From positions 160,001 to 224,000 of the IMG/VR virus record IMGVR_UViG_3300005544_000020: a stretch of 64,000 nt of DNA, one strand, 5' to 3'. The translations under genes were made by a program, and so were the position numbers. The stretch's first letter is position 1. Each line of letters begins with the position of its first letter. This stretch comes from a virus. Lineage: Duplodnaviria > Caudoviricetes. The notes beneath the pieces were generated by a model. That model was not told the origin of the DNA, ran no database searches, and saw only the letters and a program-made list of their open reading frames with translations. Below, in pieces: positions 9,649 to 13,556 of this stretch.

Positions 9649-9727
9649 TGGTGGGCAGGGAAGGACTCGAACCTCCGGTCTCCAACGGCTTGCGCCGCCG
9701 GCGCTCTACCAACTGAGCTACCTGCCC
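9649..9727 (-). ncRNA. tRNA-like RNA type A copy 1, anticodon loop replaced by GCAA tetraloop
   Basis: GGGCAGG/CCUGCCC acceptor, A73, CCA; D arm GCUC-AGUUGGUA-GAGC; 8-bp CCGGCGGC-GCAA-GCCGUUGG; T arm GGAGG-UUCGAGU-CCUUC. Confidence 0.85.
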
Positions 9728-9728
9728 A

Positions 9729-9800
9729 TGGTGCGGGGGCTGGGGCGCGACCCACAGACTTCCGGGCTTGCGCCCGGCGTGCGCTTCACACTCCCCCCGC
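9729..9800 (-). ncRNA. tRNA-like RNA type B copy 1, GCAA tetraloop
   Basis: GCGGGGG/CCCCCGC acceptor, A73, CCA; GUGUG-AAG-CGCAC; CCGGGC-GCAA-GCCCGG; CUGUGG-GUCGCG-CCCCAG. Confidence 0.75.
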
Positions 9801-9820
9801 GAATGATCACTGGAAAAAAT

Positions 9821-9898
9821 TGGTGGGCAGGGGAGGACTTGAACCTCCGGCCTTCCCCGGCTTGCGCCGGCGACGCTCTTTCTCTGAGCTACCTGCCC
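9821..9898 (-). ncRNA. tRNA-like RNA type A copy 2, GCAA tetraloop
   Basis: Same acceptor as copy 1; D loop AGAGAAA; UCGCCGGC-GCAA-GCCGGGGA; T arm GGAGG-UUCAAGU-CCUCC; CCA. Confidence 0.8.
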
Positions 9899-9899
9899 A

Positions 9900-9971
9900 T
9901 GGTGCGGGGACTGCGGCGCGACCCGCAGACCTCCAGGCTTTCGCCCGGTATGCACTTCACACCCTCCCCGC
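9900..9971 (-). ncRNA. tRNA-like RNA type B copy 2, GAAA tetraloop
   Basis: GCGGGGA/UCCCCGC acceptor, A73, CCA; GUGUG-AAG-UGCAU; CCGGGC-GAAA-GCCUGG; CUGCGG-GUCGCG-CCGCAG. Confidence 0.75.
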
Positions 9972-9978
9972 ATATTGT

Positions 9979-10371: not shown

Positions 10372-10377
10372 GGAAAA

Positions 10378-11199
10378 TTACGGACAACAAAAATTCGTCT
10401 CCTGGCCGGCGTTCCCTTCCATGAGGAAGACTCTCGAGATGGGAGATGCCGCAGGAGCATTCTCTCCGGCGCCACCAAAGAACGAGATGGTGTTTCCAGG
10501 GAGCTGATCGAAGATGCTGAAAATATCTCCGAAGAAAGTCACCGGTATCTCTTGGTGATCAATCCAGATCCTTGGAACGCCACGCGAGTCTATCGAAAGA
10601 TGAACGATATGATGACCGAGGTTCGGAGTCCAGGTGAATATCCAGGCGGGAATGAGCAGAACATCTCCGACTTGAATGACGCCGTTTCCATCGCCAAAGA
10701 GGGAAAGGAAAATCCCTCTGCTGGAGTCGGGACTGGTCAGAAAGAGTTGGTAGGTAGTGGTTGGGTTCGGGGGAGTCTGATACTCCGTGAATTCGAACTG
10801 AGCCGAAATGCTCAAGTTCTGCGGCAACGGCCTGGGCAGAGACTTCACGGCACCAATGTAGTCCGTTGCCGTATCCGTCGTAATCGTCATCGATCCTGGG
10901 GTGAAGATGATCGGGGTCGTGGATGTCCCGAACACTTCGCTGAACGTCCATCCACAGATCGGCCCCGGTGATGCTGCAGTGATCTGGCCCACGCACTCCT
11001 GGAAGCAATCTGCAAAGAAATTTGATGGCGTACAACCAGAAGACGGGAGTACCCCTACAGGTCCTCCCAACGGAGAAATCCCGCTAGCAGGACCGCCGAA
11101 CGGCGTCACGAAGCCGGGAAGAATGCAGGGACCTTGTGGAATTGGCCGGATGAAGGGTGGAGGGCACTTCGGCCTCTTGGGATCCTGATTCATTACCAT
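10378..11199 (-). CDS. Pro/Cys-rich beta-strand hypothetical protein
   Basis: Long ORF, start at ATG 11199 after upstream TAG. Confidence 0.6.
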   Translation of the reverse strand: MVMNQDPKRPKCPPPFIRPIPQGPCILPGFVTPFGGPASGISPLGGPVGVLPSSGCTPSNFFADCFQECVGQITAASPGPICGWTFSEVFGTSTTPIIFTPGSMTITTDTATDYIGAVKSLPRPLPQNLSISAQFEFTEYQTPPNPTTTYQLFLTSPDSSRGIFLSLFGDGNGVIQVGDVLLIPAWIFTWTPNLGHHIVHLSIDSRGVPRIWIDHQEIPVTFFGDIFSIFDQLPGNTISFFGGAGENAPAASPISRVFLMEGNAGQETNFCCP

Positions 11200-11203
11200 G
11201 ATC

Positions 11204-11560
11204 CTATCCTTTCGGAAGCCGATACATCGAGTCAAAAAGCGTGAAGTCTTTTTGACGCCCTTTATTACTAACAAATCCGAACCTGCGATAGAAGCGCTTG
11301 AGACGTTCTTTTGAGCTCGCTCCGAAATCCGTGGATGGGCTGAGCGTGAGCAGCATGCCGTATTGGTCAGCTAGATGCGTCAGATCCTCCATAGCCTTGG
11401 TCCCCAGACCGCGGCCGCGGAGCCTTTTTTCGATCTCGATCCTGGATAGATGAAGATTCTTCCGGCCATAAGTATCCGTGGAGATGCTGGCATCGATCAC
11501 CACACCGTGCTGCGCCCACCCTTTTTCAAGAGCCTGGAGATCCGCTTCTTCGGGGCTCAT
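11204..11560 (-). CDS. GNAT-family acetyltransferase
   Basis: RIEI...RGRGLGTKAM acetyl-CoA motif; RFYRRFGF. Confidence 0.75.
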   Translation of the reverse strand: MSPEEADLQALEKGWAQHGVVIDASISTDTYGRKNLHLSRIEIEKRLRGRGLGTKAMEDLTHLADQYGMLLTLSPSTDFGASSKERLKRFYRRFGFVSNKGRQKDFTLFDSMYRLPKG

Positions 11561-12717
11561 TAGCTCTTCATCCAGCGTTCGATCAGTTGAATGTAGGGTA
11601 AAAGATTCACGGGTTGGGATTGCAACCAGATCGAGACGATAGCCATCGAAGCCCGATCATAGCGGCGAGCCTTCACCAGATGATCGAACATCTCTGCCGC
11701 AAGAATGGCATGCTCTTCGTAATCCAGCTCAGGATTCTGCGCCTGGATGATCGAGCGGACGGCCTTCTGGACGTTCTTGTTCGTGGGCTCCGGATATTCA
11801 CCCCGCTCCTTCGCCTCCGTCGAATAGACGTAGAGCGGAATATCATCAAGCCCGGAAAGTACCTTTTGGACAAGCGCCTGATGGAAAGGCACAAGGATCT
11901 GATTGGCGTCAAGGCGGATGCTGGTCTGGCCGTGATCCCGTGCGATCATCGCGCTCTCAGTCCGGTTGTCCGCGAACCAAACTGCTGGACCATTCGACCA
12001 GTAAAGGATGGCGAAGTCTCCGGTTTTGGGCAGAGGCTCCTGCCGAATCCCATACCACGTCCGCTCAGCGATCTTCTTGTTCGCTTCTTTGACGACGGTC
12101 TTTAGAAGCGCCTTTTCTTCTTCCTCGCTCAGATCAAGCAGGGCTCTAGGGATAAATTCGCCGCCTAAAGGGCCTTCCCTCCGGAATACCATGAGCTCGG
12201 ACCTTTTATCTGCCAAAAGGAAGAAATTGAGGCCTCTGGCGATCGCGCTGATTGTCTGGAGAACGCTCCAGTAGAAATCGTTGAGATAGACGCCCTTTCC
12301 CCCATACGATGCTTTCGCATCCGCGATGACCTGGTCGAGATTCAGCCATTCAGGAACGTATTGAGGAAGTTCCTGGGCTGCCATCCGGATGACGACATCA
12401 TCCTTCATCTCGCGCCGGCTATCGACGTCCTGGTACATCATGCTCAGGTTGTCGATTGCGGTTTGGATGCTCTTCGGAAAAGCTAAGTCCTTGGCCGATA
12501 AATCACTCATATAGGCCCGCGTGATCGCAGCGCCGTAAACGAAGCCAAGGCCATTCATGAACTTATAGGCTTTGTAATGATCTTCCATGTCCGGCGTGAA
12601 ATTACGGAATTCCTGAAGGCCGAGTTTTTCAAGATCCTTGGCGTTGGCCTCAAGATAATCCAGGTATTCCTGATAGGCCTCCGTTGCCACCTTCCCTAGG
12701 ACCGCTCTCTTGCTCAT
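11560..12717 (-). CDS. hypothetical protein
   Basis: ATGA overlap start at 12717; TAATG overlap with GNAT. Confidence 0.65.
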   Translation of the reverse strand: MSKRAVLGKVATEAYQEYLDYLEANAKDLEKLGLQEFRNFTPDMEDHYKAYKFMNGLGFVYGAAITRAYMSDLSAKDLAFPKSIQTAIDNLSMMYQDVDSRREMKDDVVIRMAAQELPQYVPEWLNLDQVIADAKASYGGKGVYLNDFYWSVLQTISAIARGLNFFLLADKRSELMVFRREGPLGGEFIPRALLDLSEEEEKALLKTVVKEANKKIAERTWYGIRQEPLPKTGDFAILYWSNGPAVWFADNRTESAMIARDHGQTSIRLDANQILVPFHQALVQKVLSGLDDIPLYVYSTEAKERGEYPEPTNKNVQKAVRSIIQAQNPELDYEEHAILAAEMFDHLVKARRYDRASMAIVSIWLQSQPVNLLPYIQLIERWMKS

Positions 12718-13463
12718 ATGGTCGGCCAGGATTCCTGGATATAACGCAGGAGGTCTTCCCGGGTCTTTCCATAGGTCCGATGATCCGTGGCGAAATAGCC
12801 CTGCTTCACGGCCTCCCGCACCTCGGTCCACATCTTTATCTCTGGAACCCAGACCTGAATGAAGATAGCGGGTATCGGCCTTTCGATGAACCAATCGTCC
12901 GTAAGAGTGTTAGCCCGCTCGACATCGCCGACGTGAGCACTGTGAACTCGAAGAAGAACAGGATCTCCTGCGCTGATGTAATTGAGCGAATCGAAGGCCC
13001 ACTGGATGTGCCGTACCGCTTGACCGATGATTCCAGTGAGATAGAGCTTGGGGTGCTCCTCTCCCGGTTCTTCATCTGGGATCAACCCATCTTGGGCAAT
13101 ATTGGGAAGGTCTACCGCGAATGTCGAGTGATATAGCCAGCGACCGGTTCCAGAGGTCAAGGATTCTGGATGCGTCGCTTCGAAATGCTGACCGAAGAGC
13201 GTCACGCCGCCAGGAGCGAAGGCAAGGACAGCCACGCCCTTGGCGAGCTCGTTGAAAGCCTTTGCCGTGTCGCCCTTCTTGGCGCTCTTGAAAAGGATGT
13301 TGTCACCCTTTTCGGCGACGTATTGGGAAGCGTGGGTGGCGATCTGCTGGAGTTCCGACCAGGGCCGCTTCTGGAACTCCATGATATTGAGAGAAACCGC
13401 CATCGGCAGCATGGTCTTGAGAAGGGCGCCGGAATCCATGCACTCGAGTATATCAGGCACCAT
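12714..13463 (-). CDS. two-domain protein, C-terminal ADP-ribosyltransferase/Tpt1-like fold
   Basis: LYHST...NIAQDGLIP...LYLT...PVLLRV pattern. Confidence 0.45.
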   Translation of the reverse strand: MVPDILECMDSGALLKTMLPMAVSLNIMEFQKRPWSELQQIATHASQYVAEKGDNILFKSAKKGDTAKAFNELAKGVAVLAFAPGGVTLFGQHFEATHPESLTSGTGRWLYHSTFAVDLPNIAQDGLIPDEEPGEEHPKLYLTGIIGQAVRHIQWAFDSLNYISAGDPVLLRVHSAHVGDVERANTLTDDWFIERPIPAIFIQVWVPEIKMWTEVREAVKQGYFATDHRTYGKTREDLLRYIQESWPTI

Positions 13464-13482
13464 CTAGCTTTGCAGCAGTAGA

Positions 13483-13556
13483 TGGTGCTCCCGACGGGAT
13501 TCGAACCCGTATGCGGACTTTTAGAGAGTCCTAGCCCGCCTTTGGCCCACGGGAGC
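13483..13556 (-). tRNA. amber suppressor tRNA, anticodon CUA
   Basis: GCUCCCG/CGGGAGC A CCA; D arm GGCC-AAAGGCG-GGCU; anticodon arm GGACU-CU CUA AA-AGUCC; variable GCAU; T arm ACGGG-UUCGAAU-CCCGU. Confidence 0.9.

Follow-up and report, generated by a model that had tools for sequence, protein, structure and literature searches.

In the prfB gene, which encodes the release factor RF2, an in-frame UGA at codon 26 is passed by a +1 frameshift, an autoregulation by which the gene senses its own product. As for phages, Borges et al. described suppressor tRNAs together with in-frame stops in recoded phages and proposed that they regulate lysis genes in time; the word 'hydrolase' is absent from their text (bioRxiv 10.1101/2021.08.26.457843). 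Regarding the peptidyl-tRNA hydrolases, Iyer et al. noted that jumbo phages encode PTH2, which they regard as rescuing ribosomes, and mention neither suppressors nor early stops (PMC7824862); tRNA mimics of other designs are found in Burroughs and Aravind (2019) and in the YrlA structure paper. The locus considered here brings such elements together in a stretch of 64,000 nt (the window), corresponding to bases 160001-224000 of the 236,090-bp IMG/VR phage record IMGVR_UViG_3300005544_000020, whose completeness is estimated at ~90%. It comprises a gene for a protein of Pth2 fold broken by an early TAG, a suppressor tRNA with anticodon CUA, and four tRNA-shaped RNAs devoid of an anticodon, hereafter called mimics. 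The best explanation of the whole, to which a probability of roughly 55% is given, is a conserved phage cassette in which a small tRNA esterase of Pth2 fold is translated only with the help of the suppressor that the phage itself encodes.

The gene starts with ATG (10335-10333), continues with AAC GAA ACG and meets TAG at 10323-10321, after which the frame is open up to TGA (9981-9979); if TAG is read through, the product has 118 residues. Its relatives were gathered by protein look-ups and by searching IMG/VR, JGI metagenomes and GTDB genomes for patterns (loci with L numbers in this text), and the early stop was counted over those distinct protein variants, 52 in number, whose 5' end could be read. 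In all of them a start is followed by one to seven codons, an in-frame stop and then the domain; this stop is TAG in 51 variants and TAA in the remaining one, and the leader before it, start included, has two codons in 31 variants and four in 18. Between the stop and the first conserved strand there are anywhere from 1 to 12 codons; this variability makes a structural role of the inserted residue unlikely, and the stop looks regulatory. Gene callers either give a truncated open reading frame (ORF) of 70 aa for this family or translate it with genetic code 15; the glutamine seen at the stop position in the homologues P0014 and P0037 was rejected as genuine, since this 'Q' comes from the gene caller, which had applied code 15 to a TAG. 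As for the context of the stop, the preceding codon encodes threonine (ACN) in 41 of the 52 variants and the following base is G in 45; together with the two- or four-codon leader, these features may adjust how release factor, suppressor and peptidyl-tRNA drop-off are weighed against one another.

The type of stop follows the anticodon of the tRNA encoded nearby. A suppressor tRNA on the same strand is present in 35 loci, at a median distance of 88 nt, and its anticodon agrees with the stop in each of them (TAG with CUA in 34, TAA with UUA in one). At L068/L069 the leader reads M-G-F-T-TAA and a tRNA-UUA lies 84 nt upstream, while the sister locus L071 has TAG and CUA; a more distant member, L167, reads ATG GAT GCT TGA ATG in frame and has a tRNA-UCA 140 nt downstream. 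Two further family members with no suppressor nearby, L165 and L166, have no early stop. Given this pattern, it is very probable that the gene needs read-through of its early stop by the phage's own suppressor, in line with the proposal of the first-pass annotation of this DNA that the suppressor switches on the Pth2-like protein.

In the window, the suppressor tRNA is a canonical cloverleaf with the anticodon loop CU-CUA-AA, the discriminator A73 and an encoded CCA. It is 3.1 kb away from the gated gene, against 40-130 nt in close relatives; the two are separated by an insertion of ~3.1 kb (10378-13463) containing a 298-aa ORF, a 118-aa GNAT acetyltransferase (11204-11560), which is the sole product of the insertion with a Pfam match, an ORF of ~440 aa and one of 249 aa. 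The suppressor tRNAs of related loci have in common a G-C-N-C-C-N-G acceptor scaffold, which suggests that they are inherited together with the gated gene; their acceptor-stem features gave no assignment of amino-acid identity. In a relative of 131 kb, an RNA ligase gene (PF09414; L003:8732-9817) stands directly upstream of the suppressor tRNA, and the same holds for L004 and L005.

The first-pass annotation had placed in this region an ORF broken by UAG at codon 5 behind a promoter at 10371-10343, four CCA-ending, non-decoding tRNA-shaped RNAs beginning 7 nt after the stop of this ORF, and a CUA tRNA about 3 kb upstream on the same strand; direct reading of the minus strand confirms all three parts and their coordinates, which are collected in Table 1.

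Table 1. Position of the cassette features and of the downstream edge of the unit, in window coordinates
Feature	Position	Strand	Basis
Amber suppressor tRNA, anticodon CUA	13483..13556	-	ARAGORN; Rfam RF00005, 54.2 bits
Promoter-like site, TTGACA-N17-TAGTCT	10343..10371	-	sequence; ends 7 nt ahead of ATG
Pth2-fold gene, 118 codons, in-frame TAG as codon 5	9979..10335	-	direct sequence reading and translation
Type 1 mimic, copy a (GAAA tetraloop)	9900..9971	-	own covariance model R1, 88.9 bits
Type 2 mimic, copy a (8-bp stem, GCAA tetraloop)	9821..9898	-	ARAGORN; Rfam tRNA, 49.4 bits; minimum free energy cloverleaf; covariation
Type 1 mimic, copy b (GCAA tetraloop)	9729..9800	-	covariance model R1, 91.3 bits
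Type 2 mimic, copy b (D loop with GG, GCAA tetraloop)	9649..9727	-	ARAGORN; Rfam tRNA, 55 bits; minimum free energy cloverleaf; covariation
Promoter-like site of the next gene, TTGAAA-N17-TATCAT, downstream edge of the unit	9606..9634	-	10/12 consensus positions

The suppressor is the only ordinary tRNA found by ARAGORN in the entire 236,090-bp record, the other two calls being type 2 mimics. Over 372 predicted genes, obtained with a crude codon-usage gene model, the stops are TGA in 197, TAG in 91 and TAA in 84; coding extension past TAG is not commoner, genome-wide, than past TAA or TGA, and several TAG stops of the window lie 2-8 nt from the start of the next gene. A genome-wide scan for early stops (a start, one to six codons, a stop and a long coding ORF) returned nine candidates with TAG, ten with TGA and three with TAA, mostly antisense artefacts, among which the Pth2-like gene is the sole convincing one. 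The phage thus keeps the standard code, and this gene is the only visible target of its only tRNA.

As for the protein, the relation to Pth2 is one of fold. The AlphaFold2 model, built on 30 homologues, has a predicted local distance difference test (pLDDT) score of 87.8, and its 13 best Foldseek matches in the PDB are 12 chains of the Pth2 family, PH1539, Bit1, MJ0051, AF2095 and S. solfataricus Pth2 included, plus Atu0240, with E values from 2e-6 to 2e-4 and template modelling (TM) scores, normalised by the query, of 0.63-0.74; the uppermost of them, all from the Pth2 family, score 0.67-0.74, and the structure clusters matched in the AlphaFold database are named peptidyl-tRNA hydrolase. By sequence, the protein has no Pfam match at E <= 0.1 and none in NCBIfam, sequence and profile searches of the PDB found no Pth2, and PHROGs returned two unnamed families only. 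The assignment as Pth2-like made by the first-pass annotation therefore stands for the fold and fails for the sequence. The family itself is large, with 2,433 clusters at 50% identity (E <= 1e-3).

The canonical comparator was the archaeal Pth2 of locus L168, which scores 141 bits with PF01981. Against it, hhalign aligned only the N-terminal V-R-T-D-L ... Q-x-a-H motif (E 0.0096); in a multiple alignment of low confidence, the family retains the Asp of the canonical R-D-A-G motif as an invariant D82, and the canonical Thr column is an invariant Gln. Catalysis by Pth2 relies on a Lys in helix 1, within the G-K motif, and on the Asp (and Thr) of D-A-G-x-T. Judged from the model and this alignment, the protein appears to represent a divergent offshoot of the Pth2 fold whose active site has changed, and the 3' ester of tRNA is probably still its target.

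Regarding the mimics, all four units end in ACCA, the first begins 7 nt past the stop codon of the gene, and they are arranged as two pairs in which type 1 precedes type 2 by 1 nt. Type 1 (72 nt) has a 7-bp acceptor, a compact D hairpin without GG, a 6-bp stem capped by a tetraloop and a 6-bp T-like stem with a GUCGCG loop; type 2 (78-79 nt) has canonical acceptor, D and T arms, and where the anticodon arm would be there is an 8-bp stem with a GCAA cap; the ARAGORN label tRNA-Ala(cgc) given to two units was rejected on this ground. No 7-nt anticodon loop with U33 occurs in either type. Type 2 units exceed the gathering score of Rfam RF00005 (49.4 and 55 bits against 29), type 1 units have no RF00005 match in the window at E <= 1, with one relative borderline at 31.2 bits, and no family of Rfam 15 other than tRNA itself matches the units.

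The folding z-scores of the units range from -2.1 to -3.8. Over 14 distinct sequences of type 1 and 13 of type 2, 99% of the pairing cells are paired, and alignment registers that are slid fall to ~45-59%; changes on both sides are seen in 12 of the 23 pairs of type 1 and in 5 of the 24 pairs of type 2, values that none of 500 shuffles reached for either type. Across loci, the tetraloop varies among GAAA, GCAA, UUCG and UUAG, and its stem, of 6-8 bp, covaries. In terms of sequence and covariation, the four RNAs are two cloverleaf families without an anticodon, as their description as CCA-ending RNAs unable to decode had implied. The type 2 D arm, GUAGCUCAGAGAAAGAGC, lacks G18-G19 and is a common scaffold of phage tRNA genes (66 IMG/VR loci, L075-L140); some units with this D arm have normal 7-nt anticodon loops, others tetraloops or odd loops.

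The distribution of the mimics was followed on a tree of 62 family proteins; the tree is poorly resolved and some of its rows were gathered via the RNA pattern, so that only lineages sampled by protein were counted as independent. In the clade of the window, mimics are present in 13 of 13 rows, and in these 13 members the three parts, presented by the first-pass annotation as one combination, are found together; the lack of co-occurrence in homologous loci, which that annotation had named as a refutation, is thus not what the relatives show. The mimics start 6-7 nt past the stop codon in 14 of the 18 loci of this clade, and further downstream in L007, L038, L039 and L155. Outside the clade, protein-sampled loci with mimics are L009/L012, L014 (14 nt past the stop, no CCA) and L167 (6 nt past the stop). 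The type 1 covariance model, a kind of model that the first-pass annotation had suggested building, picks out, in the window and among related cassettes, only units already known, with weaker matches in L104, L009 and L012. A scan of IMG/VR with a loose type 1 DNA pattern gave 25 loci; 23 are chance matches in GC-rich coding sequence, and the two real ones both carry the cassette. This distribution describes the mimics as a recurrent, clade-specific add-on to a wider two-part core.

At L014 (3339-3487), two tRNA-like units lie 3' of the gated gene, one with a 6-nt loop and the other with an 8-nt loop containing CUA; the latter may be an atypical suppressor that ARAGORN cannot name. In L104 (1150-1770), a distant Pth2-like gene has no in-frame start ahead of the domain; an ATG in another frame (ATG AAC AGC CAT TGA C) joins the frame of the domain if TGAC is read as four bases, and 3' of the gene there are two units separated by 1 nt, one resembling type 1 and the other type 2. 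At L167 (471-3114), a Ro60 gene (TROVE and vWA domains) is directly upstream of the TGA-gated Pth2-like gene, which links the cassette to an RNA quality-control context; on the 3' side of the Pth2-like gene, a CCA-ended mini tRNA-like hairpin of ~55 nt starts 6 nt past the stop and is accompanied by the tRNA-UCA and by another tRNA that is called as Glu(ttc).

On these grounds, the cassette is proposed to work as follows. The ribosome would start at ATG, make Met-Asn-Glu-Thr and meet UAG; without the CUA tRNA, RF1 would end translation after four residues, and with the charged tRNA present the stop would be read and the full enzyme made, so that enzyme output would track the activity of the suppressor relative to the release factor. 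Since the stop is at codon 3-5, a failed read-through would cost almost nothing and leave no truncated product. Two further steps are conceivable. In a negative feedback, with a logic like that of prfB, the esterase would limit the charged suppressor tRNA by acting on its ester; in a feed-forward arrangement, it would clear peptidyl-tRNA or stalled complexes produced by read-through of the many TAG-ended genes. Either loop would make nonsense suppression bearable for a phage in which about one gene in four still has TAG as its stop. That the gating forms such a loop tied to suppression is given somewhat less than an even chance; the tie is favoured by the persistence of the gating over very long evolutionary distances, and by the existence of three stop/anticodon pairs in front of a product whose fold acts on tRNA esters.

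The alternative that survives best, although unlikely, takes the stop as a timer and nothing else: it would delay a general peptidyl-tRNA hydrolase until the suppressor has accumulated, the enzyme would rescue ribosomes or recycle tRNA after host attack, in keeping with the proposal made for the PTH2 of jumbo phages, and the mimics would be independent decoys that occupy host enzymes or toxins able to recognise tRNA bodies or acceptor ends. It fits with the common presence of PTH2 in the RNA-repair gene sets of jumbo phages (PMC7824862), with family neighbours such as RNA ligase (L003-L005), Ro60 (L167) and an HD-domain (HD_4) gene (L166), with the temporal role that Borges et al. propose for stop-codon recoding, and with the presence of anticodon-less units on the same D-arm scaffold inside large phage tRNA arrays, at loci that yielded no Pth2-like gene. 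However, a late promoter would serve such a timer equally well, and decoys lacking an anticodon loop cannot distract anticodon nucleases; moreover, the extreme conservation of the stop, its match to three anticodons and its standing as the sole visible target of the sole tRNA favour a tie to the suppressor itself.

The organisation of the transcript bears on the role of the mimics. The -10 element TAGTCT of the promoter-like site ahead of the gene matches the consensus at only 3 of 6 positions, which is why a consensus promoter scanner misses it. The motif TTGACA-N17-TAGTCT occurs once in the 236-kb genome, and TTGACAC...TAGTCT is found upstream of the gene also in L001, L002, L003, L007, L028 and L030; it is plausible that the mRNA starting from this putative promoter is leaderless or nearly so. 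About eight other promoter-like sites of the genome have the form TTGAC-N17-TATACT, often with a 'tatatactc' repeat, and the unique, conserved TAGTCT as opposed to TATACT points to a separate expression class for the cassette. A promoter/terminator scan of the locus found no terminator-like site between the gated gene and the RNA array, and the mimics are almost certainly co-transcribed with the gene. Beyond the cassette, an aspartyl-protease-like gene (gag-asp_proteas / DUF5678; 7826-8701) lies downstream and has the same relative position in L002, so that synteny is kept on that side.

RNase P and RNase Z would probably excise the mimics from such a transcript, and the first bases of type 1 would be covered by any ribosome standing on the stop codon of the gene. 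Once free, the mimics would offer a tRNA body and a CCA end with no ability to decode; the most economical view makes them ligands, either of the esterase or of other enzymes that act on acceptor ends. That they are, in particular, partners of this enzyme, as substrate mimics or regulators, is advanced only tentatively.

An improbable alternative assigns the units a role in cis: in the manner of mascRNA or of the tRNA punctuation of mitochondria, their cleavage by RNase P and RNase Z would fix where the hydrolase mRNA ends (3') and where the RNA behind it begins (5'), and the freed RNAs would be idle. The constant spacer of 6-7 nt past the stop, the single nucleotide between units, the lack of a terminator and the promoter right after the array all suit this idea, but one unit would do for it, and yet two types are kept as an ordered pair, duplicated here. 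Besides, type 2 is much more conserved than the protein (column identity of 91%, against 59-77% for the neighbouring protein), and cleavage by RNase P and RNase Z needs neither an encoded CCA nor a sealed tetraloop arm.

Returning to the suppressor-dependent cassette, its fullest form joins everything in one circuit: the suppressor would license the esterase, the esterase would deacylate the suppressor or hydrolyse esters on the suppressor or on the mimics, and the mimics, perhaps charged off the ribosome, would be substrates or competitive regulators, the whole setting a fixed level of read-through. This version is quite unlikely as it stands.

The remaining two alternatives deny the gating. 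It is very improbable that TAG simply ends an upstream ORF of four codons and that the enzyme arises from re-initiation or a non-canonical start, with the suppressor unrelated. In some relatives a GTG 6-9 codons past the stop is used by gene callers, and the gene of the window has ATC at codons 15 and 17; on the other hand, all 52 variants have the stop in frame, when about one third would be expected by chance, and its type follows the neighbouring anticodon. Furthermore, 33 of the 52 have no ATG, GTG or TTG within 12 codons past the stop, so that a restart would delete the first conserved strand; in the window the next canonical start comes 42 codons past TAG, within the conserved domain. 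The start upstream of the stop usually has a Shine-Dalgarno sequence, and this sequence, where present, is placed for that start. Lastly, general recoding, in which the phage would use code 15 and the gene would be just one of many with an in-frame TAG, was rejected: some gene callers did translate relatives with TAG as Gln, and suppressor tRNAs are typical of recoded phages, but with about one gene in four ending in TAG (some almost touching the next start), no excess of extension and no second early-TAG gene that stands out, the probability left to it is minimal.

It should be noted that several observations weigh against the cassette as proposed. Most members of the gated subfamily are without mimics, and for this reason the core function cannot require them. 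The type 2 D arm is widespread in decoding and non-decoding phage tRNAs alike, which, for a common scaffold, makes this sequence word useless for measuring an association with the hydrolase, and Pth2 genes are often located within phage tRNA regions anyway (PMC7824862). Of 29 loci with good flanks, 8 show no suppressor within ~3 kb, and the 3.1 kb between tRNA and gene in the window indicates that tight linkage is not obligatory. With respect to the enzyme, PF01981 (PTH2) finds nothing in the genome even at E <= 10, though it works on control genomes; in the low-confidence alignment with the L168 protein, the K-G-K segment is two residues shorter, has no Lys and holds H/Q-Q, and for this reason the enzyme may not be a peptidyl-tRNA hydrolase.

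As for its significance, the suppressor tRNAs of standard-code phages had no known purpose, and here one of them has a clear, conserved target; stop codon and anticodon changing together across phages amount to a natural compensatory-mutation experiment. The cassette also brings out a hydrolase-like family that has been overlooked and routinely mis-annotated, and CCA-ended RNAs with a sealed arm that are candidate tools or targets in the contest between phage and host over tRNA. It may also become a tool, as a ready-made orthogonal switch for synthetic biology. If the one-circuit version were true, the system would be a new class of RNA-protein translational homeostat and would provide the first natural target for the puzzling suppressor tRNAs of standard-code phages.

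In comparison with known systems, the protein has the same alpha/beta fold and size as archaeal and eukaryotic Pth2 (PF01981; PDB 1wn2, 2zv3, 3erj, 1xty and human Bit1, 1q7s), and the V-R-T-D-L ... Q-x-a-H motif is common to both, as appears to be, in the low-confidence alignment, the Asp in the R-D-A-G column; it differs in having no PF01981 match, a KGK segment that by the same alignment is two residues shorter and without Lys, and the early-stop gating. In recoded phages (crAss-like, Lak and others) a phage-encoded suppressor likewise decodes in-frame stops and is proposed to time protein production, whereas here the code is standard and the stop is a single one, at codon 3 or 5 of one conserved gene, near the tRNA; moreover, the target is an enzyme acting on tRNA and not a lysis or structural gene. 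In prfB, too, an early in-frame stop in a translation-factor gene ties output to the competition between termination and alternative decoding; the alternative event is a +1 frameshift there, and read-through by a dedicated tRNA here.

Regarding the mimics, a tRNA-shaped L that does not decode is also found in the tRNA-like domain of tmRNA, in YrlA, in the predicted b7a-tRNA (bioRxiv 10.1101/312249), in the 3' tRNA-like structures of plant viruses and in mascRNA, and those of tmRNA and plant viruses have a free CCA end as well. The mimics stand apart by their full cloverleaf with a sealed tetraloop and by their occurrence as an ordered pair of two types directly behind a Pth2-like gene. Unlike tmRNA, they have G3:C70 and no G3:U70, a D hairpin and no reading frame, and ARAGORN found no tmRNA in the window or in the whole genome. 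With respect to YrlA, their ACCA end is free and encoded while the acceptor end of YrlA is closed; its usual Ro60 context is matched only at the distant locus L167, and no TROVE, Band-7 or RtcB domain, as expected from YrlA or b7a-tRNA contexts, occurs among ten neighbouring proteins in the window. The first-pass annotation had not recognised the combination as a described system, and full-text searches of the accessible literature likewise found no description of the cassette or of tetraloop-capped, CCA-ended phage tRNA mimics. Set beside these systems, the cassette appears to be a new variant of translational control by a suppressor tRNA, with an undescribed class of RNA attached to it.

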